Origin: Candidatus Saccharimonadota bacterium
GTDB taxonomy: Bacteria > Pseudomonadota > Gammaproteobacteria > Enterobacterales > Enterobacteriaceae
NCBI GenBank assembly: GCA_000217635.1
Contig: CP001817.1
Location: forward strand, 150,001 to 182,000
Direction of reading: 5' to 3'
Length of the DNA stretch: 32,000 bases
The notes beneath the pieces are model-generated. The model made no database searches. It was not told the origin of the DNA and saw only the letters and a program-made list of their open reading frames with translations. The position numbers were made by a program, and so were the translations under genes. Of this stretch, positions 4,095 to 30,296 are shown one piece after another (positions within the stretch are counted from its first letter, which is position 1; every line of letters starts with the position of its first letter).

Positions 4095-4753
4095 AATTTT
4101 TTTTATTTCTCATTTAGTATCAATATTCATGTTTAATTTTTTAAGAAATTATATGTTCTATACCATTAATAATTTATGAGTTTTAATAATAGAATTTTTT
4201 ATTATATAAAAATCTGCAATAATAAAAAATTATTTTTTTTATTAAATAAAAGTTTATTGTATTTATTATAATATCTTATTTTTAAATTATTAAAAATTTA
4301 GATAAAAATATGATTTTTTTTATAAAAACGGATAAATTGTAGCATATTTTCTAAATTTTTTCTTTTTTTTAAATACATTTGTTAATATTAGTAAATAATA
4401 AGTATTTTAATTAAAAAAATAATTTAAATATAAAATCTTTATTTTTTTAATTTTAATAAAATTTATATTGATATGAAATAGTTTTTAATTACTTAATATA
4501 ATAATGTCAATATAATCTTTAATTTTTATAAAAATAAAATAATATTTAGTATTGTAATAATTAAATTTATTATTAAATTTAACAACATATATAAGTATAA
4601 ATGAAAAATTTAACTTTATTTTAGGTTGTGATTTTTTTGAATAAGAAGTTTTATAATAAGTACGATATATTGAGATATATAATATATTTTTTGAATAATT
4701 ATTCAATATAGTACTATGTATTGAAGAGTGTATATTTTATGTATATTCTGTTT

Positions 4754-5936
4754 TTACATAGTAAAATATTTATGATACCAAAAACGAACAATTTTTTTAG
4801 ATTCTTGGATTTTTTCAATATTAACACGTAAAGAGAATAATTCTAATGCTTGTAAAAAATTTATATTTTTATGATGCTTTTTGTATTACAATGATACTGT
4901 TTTTCTATTTCTTTTTGTAGTTTCCATATTTTAGAGATAGTAATTAATATATTTTTGGGTATTCCTATGGATATAGCAGATGATTTAAGTATTTTTCGGA
5001 CAGATATAGAATATGCATTTGAAAATCCCATTATTTTTTTTTAGTTAATTTTTTTATTTTATCTAATAATGGATACCATAGTATGGAAGCAAATAAAAAA
5101 GATGCGTGGCATATTTTTTTGTTTTTATATTTTTATCAGTTTTTTTTAAAGCTTTTTTTATAATATATTTAAAAAATATTTTGTTTTTTTATTTAAAATT
5201 TTAAATAAATAAGGTAATAATGGTTTTATTAAAGAATATTTTTTTAATTTTTTTATATGTTAAATAACCAAATCCACAACAAAATAGTTTAATAGACTCG
5301 TTAAATAAACGTGCAGATGGAACATAATGTAATAGATTAGCTAATCTTGATATAGGTTCTGATGTTTTTTTAGCAATGTTCATATTTAATTGTACTGAAA
5401 AACGAATAACGCGTAACATACGCACAGGGTCTTCTCGATATCTTGTTTCTGCATCGCCAATTAAACAAATAATTTTTCTTTTAATATCATTTACACCTCC
5501 TACATAATCGCGAATTCCAAAATCTTTTATATTGTAATATAAAGCATTAATTGTAAGATCTCGTCGATATGCATCTTCTTCAATTTTTCCAAATGTATTA
5601 TCTTGTAATAATATTCCGTTTATTATTTTTTTTTGTTTTGTACGAAAAGTAGATACTTCAATAATTTCTGCTCGAAATATTAAATGAGCAATGATAAAGC
5701 GGCGTCCAATTAATCTACAGTTTTTAAAAAATCTTTTAATATCATCAGGCGTAGCGTTAGTTGCAATATCAAAGTCTTTTGGGTTTTTTTCCTAATATTA
5801 GATCTCTTACGCTTCCGCCAACTAGATATGCTTCATAACCTAATTTATTTAACCTATATATTACTTTCATAGAATTTTTACTAATTTTTATGGGAGATAT
5901 TATAGTTTTTTTTATAATTAGAGTCATATTTTTCAT
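4754..5936 (-). pseudogene. pcnB: poly(A) polymerase I remnant with multiple frameshifts and two in-frame stops
   Basis: Hand translation in four frame segments is collinear with E. coli PcnB.
- Segment 1 from ATG 5936: [53 protein letters not shown], then out of frame (TGA 5769-5771).
- Segment 2: [27 protein letters not shown]...[26 protein letters not shown]...[10 protein letters not shown], with in-frame TAA at 5201-5203 and 5189-5191.
- Segment 3: HASFLFASILWYPLLDKIKK...IGIPKNILITISKIWKLQ.
- Segment 4: HHKNINFLQALELFSLRVNIEKIQ..., stop at 4754-4756.
It lies downstream of dksA as in E. coli (dksA-gluQ-pcnB). Confidence 0.85.
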
Positions 5937-5953
5937 ATCTGTTCTATGATTAC

Positions 5954-5992
5954 ATAGTCTTATTTTTAAATTTTAATGAAAAATAAGACTAT
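5954..5992. repeat. 14-bp perfect inverted repeat (hairpin, 11-nt loop) between dksA and the pcnB remnant
   Basis: atagtcttattttt (5954-5967) pairs base for base with aaaaataagactat (5979-5992). It includes the only G/C in the neighbourhood. There is no adjacent U-run on either strand. Confidence 0.5.
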
Positions 5993-7991: not shown

Positions 7992-10587
7992 ATGTTTAAA
8001 AAAATTATTGATAAATTTTTTTTAAATTATAGTAGTCGTATTTTAAAAAAAAATAAATTATTTTGTAAAAAAAATTAATTATTTAGAAAAAGATTTGGTT
8101 AGTTTATCGGATGCAGAATTAAAAAAAAAAACAATAATATTTAAAAATCGATTAAAAAAAGGAGAAACTTTAGAACAATTATTACCAGAAGCATTTGCTG
8201 TAGTACGAGAAGCTAGTAAACGGGTTTTTGGGATGCGTCATTTTGATGTTCAATTGTTAGGAGGTATCGTATTACATCAAAACTCGATTGCAGAGATGCG
8301 TACAGGAGAAGGTAAAACTTTAACTGCAACTTTACCGGTATATTTAAATGCGTTAGAAGGAAAAGGTGTACATGTTGTTACAATGAATGATTATTTAGCT
8401 AAAAGAGATGGTAATAAAAATCGTATTTTATTTAATTTTTTAGGATTAACTGTTGGTATAAATATAAGTAAGATGTCTAAAGCAGAAAAAAGAAAAGCTT
8501 ATTCTTCTGATATTACATATGGAACTAATCATGAATATGGTTTTGATTATTTACGCGATAATATGGTTTTTTGTAGCTCTAAAAAGGTTCAAAGAGAATT
8601 ATACTATGCATTAGTTGATGAAGTGGATTCAATTTTAATAGATGAAGCCCGCACTCCATTAATTATTTCTGGTCCTGTAGATCATAGTAATAGTATATAT
8701 ATTCATATTAATAAATTAGTACGTAAATTAACTTTACAAATTAAAGATCGTGATAAAAAAAAATATATACCAGGAGACTTTTTTATCGATCGAAAAGCGC
8801 GTCAGGTATATTTAACTGAAAAAGGTATGGATACTATAGAGAAATTATTAGTTTCATATAACTTCTTAACTTCTCAGGAATCATTATACTCACCTAAAAA
8901 TATTGTATTTATTCATCATATTTTGTTAGCACTTAAAGCACATTATATATTTTTTAATAATATTGATTATATTATAAAAATAAAAAATATTATGATTGTT
9001 GATGAACATACAGGAAGAATTATGCCTGGTCGTCGTTGGTCAGAGGGTTTACATCAGGCTATTGAAGCAAAAGAGCATGTTTTAATTCAACAAGAAAACC
9101 AGACTTTAGCTTCTATTACACTGCAAAATTACTTTCGTTTATATAAAAAATTATCCGGTATGACCGGGACTGCTATCACCGAAGAATTTGAATTTCGTTC
9201 GATATATAATTTAGAAACTGTGGTTATTCCTACAAATAAACCGATGATTCGTAATGATATGTCGGATGTAATATATCTTTCTTGTACAGAAAAATATAAG
9301 GCAATTGTTGCTGCAATTAAAGATTGTGTTTTGCGTAAACAACCGGTTTTAATAGGTACTGTTTCAATTGAAAAATCTGAATTATTATCTTCTTTTTTAA
9401 AAAAAAATTTTATTAAACATAATATTTTAAATGCAAAATTTCATGCCCAAGAAGCAGATATTATTGCGCAAGCTGGTCAATTAGGCGCTGTAACTATTGC
9501 AACTAATATGGCGGGAAGAGGAACAGATATTGTTTTGGGAGGAAATTTTGATTCTTCTTATATACATGAAAAAAATAATATTAATATAAAAAAAAGGAAT
9601 TTTTTAAAAAAACGCTGGAAAAAAAATAATGCATTGGTGATTCGTAGTGGTGGTTTACATATTATAGGTACTGAAAGGCATGAATCACGTCGTATTGATA
9701 ATCAGTTAAGAGGTAGAGCAGGAAGGCAAGGTGATCCTGGTTCTTCGCGTTTTTATTTATCTTTGGAAGATCCGTTACTTCAATTATTTTTATCAGATAA
9801 AATGATTTATTTTATGAAATTATTTGGTATTAAAAAGGAAGAATCAATTGAACATCCGTGGATTAATACAGCAATAGAGAATGCGCAAAAAAAAGTAGAA
9901 AACCAAAATTTTGATGTTCGTAAAAGTTTGTTAGAATATGATAATATTATTAATGAGCAACGAAAGGTTATTTATCATGAACGAAATAAAATTATTGATT
10001 CTAGCAATTTGAGTTCGTATATTCTTGTTATTTTCTCTAATCAAATAAAAAATTTTTTAAAAAAAAATATAATTCGAAATGATTTAGATTTTAATATTTT
10101 AAAAAAATTTAAAAATTTGTTTTTTTTAGTTTATCTCGTAAAAAAATTTTTGCAAAATAAATTATTATTCTCAAATAATATTAATCATATTAATAATTAT
10201 ATTGTAAAAATTATCCAAAAAGATTATATACAACATACTTCTCAGATATCTATTAAATACAGCATGATAATTGAAAAATATGTTATATTACAAATATTTG
10301 ATCAATTTTGGAGGGATCATTTAAATTCTCTTGATTTTTTAAGGAAAAATATTTATCTTCGTAGTTATGCTCAAAAAGATCCTACACAAGAATATAAAAG
10401 AGAATCTTTTAGTATGTTTGCTTCAATGTTAGAATCTATTAAAAAATTTATAATAAAAAGTTTATTAAATATTTTTTATAAAAATTTTGAAACACATAAA
10501 TATATTTTAATAAAATTTATTGATTCTAATGATTTTAAATCTTTACGTTATTTTATTACTAAACTTTGTGAAACTATTATAATATAA
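7992..10587 (+). CDS. secA: preprotein translocase ATPase SecA, interrupted near the 5' end by a 1-nt frameshift (uninterrupted ORF 8095..10587)
   Basis: The 830-aa ORF matches E. coli SecA from residue ~36 ([10 protein letters not shown]...[27 protein letters not shown]...[14 protein letters not shown]...[19 protein letters not shown]...[10 protein letters not shown]...[30 protein letters not shown]). The conserved N-terminus [20 protein letters not shown] (E. coli [20 protein letters not shown]) is encoded from ATG 7992 in a different frame that stops at TAA 8076-8078. Confidence 0.88.
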
Positions 10588-17695: not shown

Positions 17696-18852
17696 TTAAT
17701 TGATTTTTTTACGTAAAAAAGCGGGAATATCTAAAAAATTTTTTCGTTTTGATTATTGGGTGTTATATTTTTCTCTTTCATTTTATTCTCTGAATAAGTA
17801 TTATTCGTATCGTTTTGATTTAAAGATAGTTTATTTTGATATCCAAGTAACATATCTTTAGATGATCGGTTATTCATGAGCATTATATCAGAGTGTTTAT
17901 CGCCTCCTATCCCGGTAGCTACCACTGTAACTCTTAAGGATTCTTCCATCTTAGGATCTAATGAAGTTCCTATAACTACTGTTGCATTATCTGATGAAAA
18001 TGCTCGAATTGTATTTCCTACTGTTTCAAATTCATCTAAACGTAAATCAAAACCGGCTGTAATATTCACTAATACTCCTTTTGTTCCAGATAAATCAATA
18101 TCCTCTAATAATGGACTGGAAATAGCAATTTCAGAAGCTTCTTCTGCTCTATTTTCACCAGAAGCAGACCCGGTTCCCATCATAGCATATCCCATTTCTG
18201 ACATAACGGTGCGCACGTCTGCAAAATCAACATTCATTAAACCTGGTCGAGTAATTAACTCTGCAATTCCTTGAACCGCTCCTTTTAAAATATCATTAGC
18301 TGCTTTAAACGCATCTAATAAAGATATTCCTCGTGATAAAACTTTTAACAATTTATCGTTAGGTATAGTAATTAATGAATCTACAGATTTTGATAATTCT
18401 TGTAAACCTTGTTCTGCATATATCATTCTTTTTTTTCCTTCAAAACTGAAAGGTTTTGTTACAACAGCAACCGTTAATATACCTAAATCCCTTGCTATTT
18501 TAGCAATTATAGGAGTTGCTCCTGTCCCAGTTCCTCCGCCCATACCTGCCGCTATAAAAATCATATCAGCACCTTCAAGGGCTGATTTCAGTCTTTCTGT
18601 ATCTTCTTCTGCAGCCGTTCTTCCTACTTCTGGATTTGCTCCAGCACCTAATCCTTTAGTAATATTATTTCCTATTTGTATAGTTTGTCCTACATCTATT
18701 TTACGCAAAGCTTGTGCGTCTGTATTAATTGCAAAAAATTCTACTCCCTCTATTTTTTCGCGAATCATATGTTCTACAGCATTACTTCCCCCACCACCTA
18801 TACCTATTACTTTAATAATCGCATCATTTTCTAAATTAACTGGTTCAAACAT
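17696..18852 (-). CDS. ftsZ: cell division GTPase FtsZ; annotated ORF 17731..18852 stops just before the conserved C-terminal peptide, which continues in the -1 frame to 17696
   Basis: 373-aa ORF with tubulin signature [15 protein letters not shown] start region and NVDFADV. Its AAGGA Shine-Dalgarno lies upstream of ATG 18852. The -1 frame after the A6T6 run (17733-17744) encodes [13 protein letters not shown] then a stop (TAA 17696-17698). E. coli FtsZ ends [14 protein letters not shown]. Confidence 0.9.
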
Positions 18853-18910: not shown

Positions 18911-20150
18911 TTAAAATTCTTTTTTTAACCAATTGTATATTTGTCTAATCCAATTATGTAATATTCCTATTTTCTTTGGAATGATTTTTTTTATTTTTTT
19001 TCCATATTGTAATAATCCAATAATTGTTGAGTATTCTGGTTGTGTAATATTTTCTGGAAGATCTGGTAGATTTGGTTTTTTAAGGATTACATTGGTTTGA
19101 AATATTTTTGTTGCATATAGTGGTAATGATTTGATTTGCGATGCTCCACCCGTTAAAACAATTCCCATTAACAATTTATTTTTATTTTTTATTTCTAAAT
19201 TGAATTCACATTTTAATAGTTCATGATTAACTAATTGTAATAATTCAGAATATCTTGATTCAATAACTTCTACTAATTTTGCATGTTGTAAATTTTTTAT
19301 TTTTTCGCCATTTTTTTTAAAGATATCTATATTATTTTTGATATTACGTAAATCACTAATAACTGATCCGTATTTTTTCTTTATAAATTCAGCATCATAA
19401 TATGATAAAGAAAAAGCATAAGCGATATCTTTAGTAACTATATCGCCTCCATAAGGAATAACAGCACTATGCCGTAATGATCCTTGTGTATAAATACTGA
19501 TATTAATTATTTCTCCGCCGATATCTACTAAGCAAACCCCTAATTTTTCTTCTTCTGTTAAAATTGCTTCACTTGCAGCTAATCCAGAAAAAATAATTTT
19601 TGATACTTTTACCCCGCATTTTTCAATTGCTTTAGTTATATTTTTTTCAAGACTATAACAAGAAGTTATTAAATGTACATTAGCTTGCATACGTACACCG
19701 GATAGTCCTAATGGATTTTTTATATTTGATTGCTGGTCAATTGAAAATTCTTGCGGAATAATATGTGTTATGAATCGGTCATTCCTTATTTTTATTGATT
19801 GCGCAGTTTTAATAGCATTTTTAATATCGTCACGAGTAACTTCATCTTGTTTAATTGGAACTACGCCAATTTCATTTAAACATTCTATATCTTTATGTGA
19901 AATTGATACATATACTGATGTAATCTTATATTTTGCAACTTTTTCAGCTTCATAAATAGATTTTTTAATACATGAGATTAATAATTCTAAATTATTGATA
20001 TGACCATTTTCTATCCCATACGATTGATTTTGACTAAATCCAATAATTTCTATATTTTGATTATTTAGAATAGCTCCAATTAATACTATAATTTTTTTTT
20101 GACCCTATTTCCAAACCAACTACTATATTTTTATTATTTGAAATACTCAT
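18911..20150 (-). CDS. ftsA: cell division protein FtsA, interrupted by a 1-nt frameshift in an A9 tract at codon ~19
   Basis: ATG at 20150 gives MSISNNKNIVVGLEIGSKK (E. coli ...RKLVVGLEIGTAK). After the tract (T9 on + strand, 20092-20100) the protein continues in the +1 frame: IIVLIGAILNNQNIEIIGFSQ...NPLGLSGVRMQANVHLITS...LVDIGGE...VLTGGASQI...NWLKKEF. This is collinear with E. coli FtsA to the C-terminal amphipathic helix. The ORF track only shows 18911..19690, from an internal Met. Confidence 0.88.
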
Positions 20151-21548
20151 GTTTAACCTGTATTTATGGTTATTCTATTTTTTTATGATTATTTAAGGAG
20201 ATCCTTATTATATAGGATTTTTTGATTTATAATGTAATCTAGATTTTCTATTAAATTATTATGTTTATTAATCATATTATTTGATGTGTTTTATAATATA
20301 AAAAAATAGGTATTGTAATTAATAAAAATAATTTTGTAAGTACATAAAATATGTATTTATTTTTTTTATTGCTCTATTGTAGAGATTGATTCTTTATTTT
20401 AATATAAAAATTTTAAATAAAATTATAGATATTTTTTTTAAATCGATTTATTGTTATATAATTTAGTATTATTATATGCATAATTAAGTATTTATTATGA
20501 TAAATAAAATTTATTATCAGGATAGATTTTTATTTCTTATGTTTGAAAACATTAAATTCTTATATATTTTATAGATATTTAATAGATAAAATATAAAAAA
20601 AATTAATTTTTAAAAGATATCAAACATTAATAAAAAGTAAATTAGGATATATTTTGATTTTTAAAAAATATGTTAAAAAAATTTTTTATTTAATAATATT
20701 AAATATATTATATAAATAATGAACTGGATATAATATTAACTATGGTTTTATTTTTTATTTGTTCTTATATAGAATTAAATATATTTTTAATTTGAAAAAT
20801 TACGATTTTTAATAAAAAAAATTTTAAATTTGATTAATTATTTATAATTTATAGTTGCAATAATAATAAATTATTTTATATGACTTTATAATGTTATATC
20901 TCTATTTGAGATAATATGATAATAATGAATTATTTATTTTTTAGATATTTTTATTTGTAAAAGAGTATAAGTGGTTTTATAGTTTTATTATTAAAGATAA
21001 TGCATCACTTTTTTTCTTTTTACTTTTATTTATTAACTGCAACACTTATTATTAATAAGTATAGCTAATAATATTAAATTATTATACATGAATAATGTAA
21101 AAGGTTTTAATTCAATTGTATAAAATTTTAAAAATGATTTTTTTTTGTTTAAATTTTTTTTTAGAATTTTATAACATTAAAAAAGATATTATTTATTTTA
21201 ATAAATATTAAATTTAATAACTTTTAATATTAAAAATATAATTGTAAAAATATATGTTGTATTATTATTAAATAATCAATATTGTTTTTTAAAAAAGATA
21301 CATGCTATATCTTATATAATATAATGTAATATTTTATATGTAAAAAAATATTAAGTTTTAAAATAAAAATTTTAAAAAATTTTTTATTACACCAATATAG
21401 ATGTTTATTAATTTTATTAATTTTAAATTATTATATATATATTTTTAAATGATAAAAATTTAATGTCATTTAAAGTATTAGAAAATTTTTTATTTTTATT
21501 TATATAATATTATTTTTAATATGTATTATATTAATAAAATATATAGAA
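20151..21548. other. 1.4-kb non-coding spacer where the ftsL-ftsI-murE-murF-mraY-murD-ftsW-murG-murC-ddlB-ftsQ block sits in E. coli
   Basis: It is flanked by ftsA (start 20150) and rsmH (stop 21549) on the same strand. There is no ORF in the track, G/C is almost absent, and I found no recognisable remnant peptide in any frame. Confidence 0.7.
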
Positions 21549-23107: not shown

Positions 23108-24822
23108 TTAATTTCTTAATAACATTTCATTCATCCCGCCATTTTTTATTTGCATAGGATAAATATGTTCAGTTGGATCAATATGTATATCTAAAAATAC
23201 TAAAGATCCATGATTAACTATGTTAATCGCATGTAATAATTTTTTTTAATGTCAGAAGGTTTATTAATTATTAAGCCAATATGTCCATATGATTCTACTA
23301 ATTTTACAAAATTTGGTAATGATTTCATATATGAATGTGAATGTCGTCCAGAATATATCATATCTTGCCACTGTTTCACCATACCTAAAGATTGATTATT
23401 TAAATTGATTATTAAAATAGCTATTTTATATTGTTTTGCAGTAGATAGTTCTTGGATATTCATTTGAATACTTCCATCACCAGTAATGCATATTACTAAT
23501 TCGTTTGGAAAAGCTAATTTTACACCGAGAGCAGCTGGAAGTCCAAAACCCATAGTTCCTAATCCACCTGAATTAATCCAATGACGCGGTTTTTTAAAAT
23601 TATAATATAATGCAGTAAACATTTGATGCTGTCCAACATCTGAAGTAATATATGCATTTCCTTGAGTTAAAGAAGATAACTCTTTTATTACACCTTGTGG
23701 TTTAATAAAATTTTGAGAATTTTGATATTGAAGACATTGTATTTGTTTCCATTGATCAATTAGCTTCCACCATGCACATAAATAATTTTTTTCTCTTATA
23801 TTATTTTTTTTGTTTAAAAAATATAAGATTTCTTTTAAAATAATTTTAGCATCACCAACAATAGGAATATGCGCTGTAATTGTTTTAGAAATAGATGTAG
23901 GATCTATATCAATATGTATTATTTTAGCGGTTGGACAATACTTTTTAATGTTATTTGTTGTACGATCATCAAAACGTACCCCGATAGCTAAAATAACGTC
24001 GGAATAATGTATTGCCATATTAGCTTCATAGGTACCATGCATACCTAACATGGATAAGTTTTGTGGATGATCTCCGGGAAATGCGCCTAATGACATTAAA
24101 GATAAAACAACAGGAATATTTAATTTTGTTGCCAATTGATATAATTCTGAATGACTATTTGAATTAATGATTCCGCCTCCAGCATAAATAATCGGTTTTT
24201 TTGCTTTTATAAAAATTTTTATTGCTTTTTTAATTTGACCTATATGTCCATTTTTAATGGGATTATATGATCGAATATTGATTGATTCTGGCCATATATA
24301 ATTTTTTTTTATATTTTGATCTAATATATTTTTAGGTAAATCTATTACTACTGGTCCTGGTCGACCGCTTGTAGCTAATAAAAAAGATTTTTTAAAAATT
24401 TCTGGAATTTCTTCAGTTTTTTGTACTAAGAAACTATGCTTAACAATAGGGCGAGAAATCCCAATCATATCACATTCTTGAAATGCATCATAACCCATTA
24501 GTTCTGAAGAAACTTGACCTGAAATTATTAATAAAGGAATAGAATCCATATAAGCTGTTGCAATTCCAGTAATAGAATTGGTAGCTCCAGGCCCTGAAGT
24601 TACTAATACTACTCCAATTTTTCCAGTTGCCCGTGCATAACCATCAGCCATATGTGCGGCACCTTGTTCGTGTCTTACTAAAATGTGCTTTATTTTTTTT
24701 CCGATTGTTTTAAATGCATCATATATATCTAATACAGCGCCACCAGGGTATCCAAATATAATTTTAATATTTAAATCAATTAGTGATTGAATGACCATTT
24801 CAGCGCCTGATAATAACTTCAT
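23108..24822 (-). CDS. ilvI: acetolactate synthase III large subunit, with a 1-nt frameshift in an A8 tract ~45 codons before the ancestral stop
   Basis: The true start is ATG 24822 ([28 protein letters not shown] vs E. coli [28 protein letters not shown]), with AAGGA upstream. The 40-codon extension in the ORF track is low-complexity. ThDP motif [14 protein letters not shown]...[12 protein letters not shown] is present. The zero frame stops at 23218-23220. The -1 frame gives [43 protein letters not shown] then a stop (TAA 23108-23110), collinear with the E. coli C-terminus. Confidence 0.9.
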
Positions 24823-25153: not shown

Positions 25154-25942
25154 TTAATTTTCTCGGAGCAATAAATTAAGTTCGGTTTTTTTTAATGTTT
25201 TATAATCTACTTTTTTAACAATAACAGCGCAATATAAGTTAATTTTTTTATCCGTTGAGGGAAGAGATCCAGGTACTACTACTGATCCATTTGGAACTTT
25301 TCCATAAAAAATATTATTTGTTTCGCGATCATAAATTTTTGTACTTTGTCCGATGTACACGCCCATAGAGATGACAGATCCTTGACCAATTATTACACCT
25401 TCTACTATTTCTGAGCGCGCACCAATAAAACAATTATCTTCAATAATTGTAGGATTATTTTGTAGAGGTTCTAATACACCACCTATACCAACTCCTCCGG
25501 ATAAATGAACATTTTTTCCGATTTGAGCGCAAGATCCAACAGTTGCCCATGTGTCAATCATGCTATTTTTTCCAATATGAGCTCCGATATTAACAAAACT
25601 AGGCATAAGTATAACATTTTTATCAATAAATGAACCATATCTAACGGTTGCATATGGTATAATACGAATATTATCATTAATAAATTGATTTTCATCATAT
25701 TTTTTATATTTTAAAGGTATTTTGTCATAATATGAGTTTTCGGCGCATTTGAATATTTTATTTTTTTTTGAGTATAAATATAATAATACGGATTTTTTAA
25801 TCCATTGGTGAGTTATCCAGGTTTTATTAATTTTTTCGGATACTTTAATTTTACCAAAATTTAATAAATCAATAGCTTTATTTATTATTTTTTTATCTTT
25901 AGCTTGAATAATATAGTTTTTTATTTTATTTTTTTTGATCAT
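25154..25942 (-). CDS. dapD: tetrahydrodipicolinate N-succinyltransferase
   Basis: 262-aa [16 protein letters not shown] and hexapeptide-repeat core [51 protein letters not shown] are nearly identical to E. coli DapD. Confidence 0.95.
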
Positions 25943-26117
25943 AAATATAATCTATATTTTTTTTAGTTCTAACATGTTAATATATAACCTTTCTAAAATG
26001 ATAAACAGTTTAAATCTATTTATTTTTTTGTTAATTTTTATACTATGATATAATTTATTTGGTTTAATATTAGAATTAGATCAATTTTTATAAAAAGTTT
26101 AAAAATATTTGAATGAC

Positions 26118-28982: not shown

Positions 28983-29739
28983 TTCTTCATTAATTGTTTA
29001 ATAATTTGAAGTGATTTATTAAAGTTGGTTTTATTTTAATTTATAGTATTTAAGGTAGTTTTATAAAAATAAGTATTACTATTAATTTTAAAAAATTTAA
29101 TTGATTAATAAAATATAATTTTTAATATATTAAATAAATTAATTATTTTATGTAATATTTTTAAATATCAATATATTTATTTGATTATTATAATAATTTC
29201 TAAGAGTTATAAAAATTAAAATAGAATATATACATACTTTTAATTATTAATTGAATATTTATAAATAATGATTTTTTTTTCTCATTTTTTAAATGGTATT
29301 TTAATAGATCAAAAATAATAGATTTTATTGAAAAGATTAATTGATGATTATATTTATATAATTTTTATTATATTAGTTGTTTACTATTCATAATTAATAA
29401 TATGATTTTTATATATTTAATATTAAAATGGGTTTTTATAATGATTTATAATATTTTTATGAAAATTACTTAGTTTTATTCTTATTGTAAGAAATATTAT
29501 TTTATTGATTAATATAAAATATTAATAAAAAATATACTTTTAAAGAACATAATATATAAGTATATTAAAGTGATTAAATAAATGTTTTTAATATCTTTAA
29601 GTAATTTTTTTTCTAAATATATTAATGTAATATCTGTTATTATTGGATTATATTTAATATATAAAAAAAATAAAAATTTTTTTTAAGTTCTTATTAATTT
29701 TATAATTAATTCTAATACTTATATAAGGATTTCTAAAAA
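28983..29739. other. 757-bp non-coding spacer occupying the position (and roughly the length) of pyrH
   Basis: In E. coli the order is rpsB-tsf-pyrH-frr and pyrH is ~0.73 kb. Here tsf and frr are separated by 757 nt with no ORF, almost no G/C and no recognisable UMP-kinase motif in any frame. Confidence 0.6.
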
Positions 29740-30296
29740 ATGATTAATTCATTAGTAGAATATGTTCGTGTTTCCATGAATAAATGTGTTATAGTTTTTC
29801 AAGATGATTTAAACAATATACGTGCTAATCATGTTACGCCATCATTATTAAAAAATATTTATATTGAATATTTTGGTGTTAAGACTTCGTTGTTCCAATT
29901 ATCTAATATTGTTGTAGAAGACAATAATACATTAAAAATAACATTATTTGACGAATCTATAAAAAATACAGTGGAAAAAGCTATTATAAATTCAAATTTA
30001 GGTTTTAATCCAATTTCGATAGATTCTATTATTCGTATTCCTGTTCCTATTTTATCTGAGGATAGAAGAAGAGAATTAGTAAAAATGATTAAAAAAGATT
30101 CTGAACATACCCGGGTTACAATAAGAAATATTAGGCGAGATGCGCATGAAAAGTTAAAAATTTTTTTAAAAAATAAAAAATAACACAAGATTTAATGCGA
30201 GATTATAAAAAAGAAATTCAAGATTGTACCGATATGTTTATTAAAAAAATTAATAAAATAGTTGCTCTCAAAGAAAATGAGTTAATGAATGTTTAA
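29740..30296 (+). CDS. frr: ribosome recycling factor, with a 1-nt frameshift in an A6 tract (uninterrupted ORF 29740..30183)
   Basis: The 147-aa ORF is collinear with E. coli RRF residues 1-147 ([29 protein letters not shown]...[18 protein letters not shown]...[12 protein letters not shown]). The -1 frame from 30180 gives [38 protein letters not shown] then a stop (TAA 30294-30296), collinear with E. coli [38 protein letters not shown]. Confidence 0.9.

Follow-up and report, generated by a model that had tools for sequence, protein, structure and literature searches.

The divisome gene ftsA is split by a surplus adenine in the deposited genome of Buchnera aphidicola BCt, whose host is Cinara tujafilina (CP001817.1, 444,925 bp; PMC4122931 Table S1 and PMC11193766). 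This extra base is probably a homopolymer miscall in CP001817.1, the true tract being eight adenines (A8) long and the gene intact. The break was analyzed within a 32,000-nucleotide stretch of that genome (positions 150,001 to 182,000 of the forward strand; hereafter the window, to whose numbering coordinates refer unless a sister locus is named). We infer a sequencing error as its cause from a pattern: the break itself, at least six further one-base discrepancies in run length nearby, the absence of such breaks from sister genomes and the selective constraint on the affected genes, all of which were observed directly.

As deposited, ftsA lies on the minus strand and is divided between two reading frames. 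Its head (20061..20150) begins at ATG 20150-20148, encodes 19 genuine FtsA codons (MSISNNKNIVVGLEIGSKK) and then enters a run of nine adenines (A9; 20092..20100, minus strand, flanked by C and T) whose in-frame length would be A8. Past A9 the frame reads NYSINWSYSK, ten out-of-frame codons that end at TAA 20063-20061, and the deposited sequence thus holds no single uninterrupted ftsA frame, A9 shifting it after codon 19. The body (18911..20104, minus strand) comprises 397 open codons in a frame one base away from that of ATG 20150; TAG 20107-20105 closes this frame upstream, and the stop codon at 18913-18911 terminates it. In a mechanical list of open reading frames (ORFs), the earliest ATG, GTG or TTG of the body frame is ATG 19690, which opens a 259-amino-acid (aa) ORF and loses 153 residues. 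A first-pass annotation of this DNA had described the same arrangement, with the start codon and first 18 codons set apart, a premature TAA and a downstream frame closed by the TAG with no usual start before Met 19690; each element was found again on re-reading.

Removal of one A from the run gave a 412-aa ORF. The corrected protein scored 123 bits against Pfam FtsA and 88 bits against SHS2_FTSA, 393.8 bits against TIGR01174 and 441.7 bits against the NCBIfam equivalog NF007009 (cut-off 409), with residues 3-412 aligned to positions 3-420 of the 420-position profile. Residues 5-106 aligned with residues 5-106 of E. coli FtsA (PDB 7q6d) with no gap at the junction, for which the corrected frame encodes the peptide IGSKKIIVLIGAILNNQNIEIIGFSQ. 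The repaired protein accordingly has the extent of the full-length FtsA model, with both its phosphate-1 region at the N-terminus and its SHS2 (1C) insert. The earlier proposals that A8 restores collinearity with E. coli FtsA, and that a full-length product requires a one-base correction inside the A run, are therefore upheld, and the former extends to the closest sister protein.

That sister, the Buchnera of C. confinis (LT667503.1, 443,747 bp), was identified by an alignment-based homolog search, in which the closest proteins to the window FtsA were all from Buchnera aphidicola. Comparisons were made with five Lachninae Buchnera, those of C. splendens (locus L005), C. pseudotaxifoliae (L007), C. 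confinis (L008), C. cedri (L009) and Tuberolachnus salignus (L010). FtsA identity to C. confinis was 87% over the N-terminal 255 residues searched and 83% over the full length. C. confinis FtsA begins with MSISNNKNIIVGLEIGSKKIIVLIG, which equals the window junction once one A is removed, and the peptide across the junction, EIGSKKIIVLIG, is encoded there in frame. As DNA, the C. confinis tract reads GGA TCT AAA AAA ATT (TCT followed by A7) and that of the window GGG TC followed by A9 and TT; a synonymous change of TCT to TCA on the sister sequence would alone yield an in-frame A8. No further stops and no further insertions or deletions (indels) of lengths other than multiples of three separate the two ftsA genes. 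The comparison with related strains, which the first-pass annotation had named as a check, found ftsA in frame in C. confinis and in the four other Lachninae Buchnera, so the frameshift is not conserved among relatives.

The head belongs to the same gene as the body. Of its 19 residues, 18 are identical to the N-terminus of C. confinis FtsA, and the split is for this reason not a matter of chance. When the body frame was used as the query in an exhaustive search, the best representatives aligned from their residue 16; the body frame therefore lacks exactly what the short head supplies. Relative to C. confinis, the head shows five synonymous codon changes and one conservative one, and an AGG Shine–Dalgarno-like triplet (20159-20157), the bases adjoining it upstream and the start codon are all conserved. 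These observations support ATG 20150 as the true start, and together with the 5:1 ratio of changes they indicate that a single protein has been made from head and body throughout essentially the whole divergence of the two lineages. In C. splendens, ftsA has an A9 of its own at codons 5-8 (L005 10013-10024; ATA AAA AAA AAT), which is in frame; long A runs near the ftsA start therefore occur in frame in verified sisters.

The lack of conservation also bears on the idea that the run is a programmed ribosomal frameshift site regulating the level of FtsA. An A run is slippery for tRNA-Lys and AGGG lies directly upstream, yet this AGGG simply encodes the Ile-Gly of the conserved LEIG motif, and no downstream structure was found (minimum free energy −6.9 kcal/mol, z = +1.1, with 180 of 200 shuffled sequences folding at least as well). 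The site is not shared either, since the sisters are in frame and most have no run at all. Programmed frameshifting is effectively refuted by this non-conservation, and we give it almost no credence. Nor is an A9 run remarkable as such: the window has 22.6% guanine plus cytosine (GC) and contains 33 A or T runs of at least nine bases, so runs of this kind are commonplace in it.

The ftsA break is one of at least seven one-base run-length discrepancies spread over six otherwise intact conserved genes in these 32 kb. Their tracts span A6 to A9 and they differ in direction: there is a surplus base in secA and ftsA, a missing base in ilvI, ftsZ and frr, and one discrepancy of either sort in dapD. 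In secA (7992..10587, plus strand), ATG 7992 is followed by 20 codons, an A9 at 8045-8053 and a stop at 8076-8078, and the body frame has no stop between 8047 and 10587; an A8 makes the product 864 aa long and collinear with E. coli SecA (L38 S39 D40), and sister SecA proteins are 863-868 aa long. The ftsZ gene (17696..18852, minus strand) is read as a 373-aa ORF that ends at TAG 17733-17731 inside GAAAAAATTTTTTAG, where an A6 (17744-17739) adjoins a T6 (17738-17733). Its conserved C-terminal FtsA/ZipA-binding tail of 12 residues is intact in another frame, and one added base gives a 385-aa FtsZ; the corresponding tract is A7T6 in C. splendens and AAAGAAA followed by T6 in C. confinis. In ilvI (23108..24822, minus strand), an A8 at 23240-23247 leads to a frame that ends at TAG 23220-23218 and places the last ~44 residues in another frame, and with A9 the gene encodes 571 aa that are collinear with IlvI of E. 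coli and of the sisters. The frr gene (29740..30296, plus strand) is read as a 147-aa ORF that ends at TAA 30181-30183 directly past an A6 (30175-30180), with the other 38 residues in another frame. With A7, which is what C. confinis has, it encodes a 185-aa RRF that reaches the final position of TIGR00496.

Compared with its sister, dapD (25154..25975, minus strand) is one base short in the run at 25957-25964 and has an extra base at the run 25929-25936, ahead of which stands C 25937. From one change to the other, 28 nt are out of frame and hold a TAG, and the called ORF starts at ATG 25942, 11 codons late. A point mutation creating an in-frame TAG was considered for dapD and rejected, as the sister comparison shows two one-base changes. 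The pcnB gene (~4500-5972, minus strand) is a different case: several frame changes and in-frame stops were found, the first break lying in GGAAAAAAACCCAAAAGAC, and similarity to E. coli PcnB crosses all three frames; pcnB is probably a genuinely decaying pseudogene, or else carries several more errors.

This wider set changes what the ftsA break can be taken to mean. The first-pass annotation had paired it with a frameshift in the ftsZ tail and had the two retained divisome genes depend on the same kind of correction. The ftsZ frameshift was found as described, and both genes do need a one-base change; the likeness stops there, as ftsZ needs a base added in A6T6 and not one removed from a long run. 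A meaningful divisome pair is not borne out, because secA, ilvI, frr and dapD share the defect, and dependence of the organism on such corrections is disfavored by the same four genes and by the lack of any such discrepancy in the five sisters.

In those sisters, the compared genes are all intact and of canonical length. Across 14 genes shared with C. confinis, net length differences that are not multiples of three were found only in homopolymers, and in ftsZ, ilvI and frr the C. confinis sequence is exactly one base longer within or beside the run. Frame breaks affect 4 of the 14 window genes, or 5 with dapD, versus none of 68 gene copies in the five sisters (Fisher p = 6e-4 and 7e-5, respectively); secA runs off the edge of all five sister loci. 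The 14 genes contain 118 A runs of at least six bases in the window and 122 in C. confinis, and 11 and 12 runs, respectively, of at least nine. These counts are nearly the same, and homopolymer load does not explain the excess of breaks.

The density of breaks was also compared with verified genomes. Eight verified Buchnera genomes have 1-18 homopolymeric frameshifts each, with 3 in that of C. cedri (PMC3164680 Table 1), and most of these fall in genes that are dispensable, among them murF, murE, mraY and hns (PMC3164680). This corresponds to 0.05-0.9 per 32 kb, against 5 per 32 kb in the window, which is 5 to more than 100 times denser; the probability of at least five in 32 kb at the verified rates is at most 0.002. 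In Blochmannia, 4-8 genes among ~600 have homopolymer frameshifts (PMC3017870). The breaks in the window are thus dense, occur in both directions and at runs from A6 to A9, the shorter runs included, hit the essential genes secA and frr, leave constraint normal and have no counterpart in sisters of equal homopolymer load, all of which points to homopolymer errors in the assembly and is unlike the picture in verified endosymbiont genomes.

Circumstantial evidence agrees with such errors. A companion genome published in 2011 by the same first author was sequenced by 454 only, at 25.9x, with Sanger reads just for contig joins (PMC3213167), and the same laboratory sequenced C. tujafilina DNA by 454 FLX, a co-symbiont later needing HiSeq polishing (PMC4122931). 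For another genome, the laboratory also conceded that 454 sequencing might have left artefacts in homopolymers (PMC3620526). In a uniform re-annotation, BCt has 394 coding sequences (CDSs) and 78.5 kb of non-coding DNA, and its sisters have 369-384 CDSs and 53-68 kb (PMC11193766); a surplus of both is expected from split genes, which would produce more CDSs and more non-coding DNA alike. An independent check for errors in structural RNA genes yielded nothing to compare, as no tRNA or Rfam genes were found in the 32-kb window.

The ratio of non-synonymous to synonymous substitution rates (dN/dS) was calculated against C. confinis with frames repaired. Values were 0.125 for ftsA, 0.088 for ftsZ, 0.139 for ilvI and 0.258 for frr, and ten intact neighbors gave 0.07-0.37 at dS of 0.54-1.0; purifying selection on the broken genes is thus of ordinary strength. 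Together with the changes in the head, this excludes an old ftsA pseudogene and argues against a downstream start. Such constraint is equally expected of an intact gene and does not separate an intact ftsA from a very recent or a rescued frameshift.

A real and inactivating A9, which would make ftsA a very young pseudogene or leave a truncated product from ATT ~20044 (377 aa) or ATG 19690 (259 aa), must be set against these values. The public ftsA calls are exactly these truncated forms, and pcnB testifies to ongoing real decay in the lineage. A product without its first 35 or 153 residues, however, loses the phosphate-1 motif and thereby a portion of the ATP site of the actin fold. At 22.6% GC, the 397 codons have stayed free of stops, with dN/dS of 0.125, the changes in the head are 5:1 synonymous to non-synonymous, and ftsA is kept in all surveyed Lachninae Buchnera (PMC10591338). 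Inactivation would in addition need the simultaneous, very recent loss of the essential genes secA and frr, and we regard it as very unlikely.

The case for a miscall has points that weigh against it. For BCt a single public assembly exists, CP001817.1, which offers no independent check of tract length. Real homopolymeric frameshifts exist in Buchnera, so ftsA may have a genuine one even where the other genes are miscalled. Miscalls do not most typically take the form of the two compensating dapD changes, one of which adjoins a C, and pcnB looks truly decayed, so the lineage accumulates real lesions. Finally, transcription slips to an appreciable extent at runs as long as A9 (PMC5009743).

This last point is also the starting point for a different account, in which A9 is genuine and fixed, with a minority of slipped transcripts (A9 to A8, or A11 with an extra Lys) yielding full-length FtsA; sliding of the ribosome with tRNA-Lys on the A run may contribute to such a rescue. 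Nine is a run length at which bacterial RNA polymerase slips appreciably (PMC5009743), and ftsA does combine a one-base indel in a run of about nine or more with an otherwise intact ORF under continued purifying selection and a head kept as coding sequence. As ftsA is retained in 15 of 15 Lachninae Buchnera (PMC10591338), a fixed frameshift would need rescue. Against this, the frameshift is absent from the closest sister and from all five relatives, and conservation across strains is the main argument for genuine endosymbiont frameshifts (PMC3017870). The direction is also unfavorable. A loss of one base or a gain of two would be required in both ftsA and secA, but transcription indels at runs in Buchnera are mostly gains of one (151 of 157 insertions versus 16 of 57 deletions, with an exponential rise towards longer runs), and no frame-restoring event was seen in a survey of the whole transcriptome (PMC5574713). 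Slippage must moreover work at A6 or A8 in ftsZ, frr and ilvI, where it is exponentially rarer, and at a density of breaks that exceeds verified genomes by a factor of 5 to more than 100. Rescue by slippage is accordingly unlikely at ftsA, although it retains some weight.

A mixture of A8 and A9 chromosomes in the polyploid Buchnera population, of which the consensus recorded A9, was weighed as well. Buchnera is highly polyploid, deep sequencing has revealed indel polymorphism within samples (PMC3164680) and no sites are more mutable than long A runs. Such a mixture leaves unexplained the several other broken genes here compared with none in five sister assemblies, and its probability is small. 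Smaller still is our confidence in the sweeping version of the rescue, namely that BCt truly carries fixed one-base frameshifts in about one-fifth of its core genes and survives by genome-wide transcriptional or translational recoding even at A6-A8. If true, this would be a dependence far beyond anything documented in Buchnera or Blochmannia.

Returning to a miscall in the assembly, the real ftsA would read TCA AAA AAA ATT (Ser-Lys-Lys-Ile) across an A8 and would give a normal 412-aa FtsA from ATG 20150 with no recoding. The tract itself arose in the C. confinis and C. tujafilina lineage, where Ser-Lys-Lys replaced Ala/Thr-Thr-Lys. In BCt, the synonymous change from TCT to TCA would then have stretched the run from A7 to A8, and the length of such runs is hard to call.

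The public record follows the deposited frames. For ftsA, the gene calls are 377 aa from ATT ~20044 (P0156) and 259 aa from ATG 19690 (P0160), and for ftsZ the call is 373 aa; databases propagate these truncated ftsA and ftsZ calls, and the public secA, ilvI, frr and dapD calls are apparently truncated too. By exact look-up, LpdA, AceE and the truncated FtsZ of the window each fell into a single-member cluster on one contig. Exact look-ups of the repaired FtsA (A8 and A11), FtsZ (A7 and T7), IlvI (A9) and SecA (A8) found none of them in the protein collection, and a scan of the genome collection with repaired FtsA returned only distant Bacillales and proteobacterial matches.

The gene order of the window is thrC-thrB-thrA, pcnB, dksA, truA, secA, aceE-aceF-lpdA, erpA, ftsZ, ftsA, rsmH, ilvH, ilvI, dapD, map, rpsB, tsf, frr and bamA. 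Between ftsA and rsmH lies a 1.4-kb spacer (20151..21548) of ~15% GC, where E. coli has ftsL-ftsI-mur-ftsW-ddlB-ftsQ, and C. confinis has a similar gap of 1.17 kb. The first-pass annotation had stated that the peptidoglycan genes next to ftsA are gone, and tblastn indeed detected no mur or fts remnants in the spacer at E<1. In C. splendens and C. pseudotaxifoliae, one gene for a 492-aa Mur ligase lies between rsmH and ftsA (L005 and L007, 7838-9316), and there is none at this place in the window or in the C. confinis, C. cedri and T. salignus loci. This pattern agrees with the published figure for murE, which 53% of Lachninae Buchnera retain. Loss of peptidoglycan genes with ftsZ and ftsA kept is already documented for Lachninae Buchnera and is not new.

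Elsewhere in the window, pyrH is absent between tsf and frr (28983-29739), as it is in C. confinis and T. salignus. A full pyrH is present in C. cedri, and a pyrH (AA_kinase) call lies at the locus edge in C. splendens and C. pseudotaxifoliae. This pattern looks like a lineage-specific loss of UMP kinase. The 147-aa ORF at 29740 was considered as a truncated pyrH and rejected, as its match to TIGR00496 identifies it as frr.

What follows from the ftsA tract depends on its true length. If A9 is an error, there is no biological feature at ftsA; if it is real, it would be one more example, in a divisome gene, of a mechanism known since 2008, and of modest interest. The practical consequence is broader, as CP001817.1 serves as a reference and scaffold for other Cinara Buchnera assemblies (bioRxiv 10.1101/086223) and for gene-content comparisons. 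Analyses of gene loss, pseudogene counts and protein length in Lachninae Buchnera that use it would inherit the artefacts, and CP001817.1 and its truncated gene calls need polishing with accurate reads before comparative use.

Among known systems, the breaks resemble the homopolymer errors of early pyrosequenced AT-rich assemblies, exemplified by the Illumina-corrected Buchnera Ak and Ua (PMC3164680). In both, the discrepancies are confined to homopolymers, run in both directions, fall in essential and dispensable genes and are absent from independently sequenced relatives. For CP001817.1, presumably pyrosequenced as well, the case differs in resting on the pattern and on the contemporaneous practice of the laboratory. 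Slippage-rescued poly(A) frameshifts (Tamas et al. 2008 PNAS; Wernegreen et al. 2010 MBE; Williams & Wernegreen 2010, PMC3017870), whose founding examples include Buchnera cell-envelope genes, share with ftsA a one-base indel in a long A run of an intact, constrained gene in an AT-rich reduced genome. Accepted cases of that class, however, have been verified at the level of genomic DNA and often recur in several strains or species, whereas the ftsA indel is confined to one unverified assembly with the sister in frame, and it is accompanied by A6-A8 breaks in essential genes at a density far above that of verified genomes. With respect to gene content, the Lachninae minimal divisome, in which ftsZ and ftsA alone are kept of the divisome in 15 of 15 genomes and peptidoglycan synthesis is absent (PMC10591338), is matched without difference: the window has ftsZ and ftsA beside rsmH with the mur/fts block deleted, as in C. 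confinis, and shows the known state of the clade.

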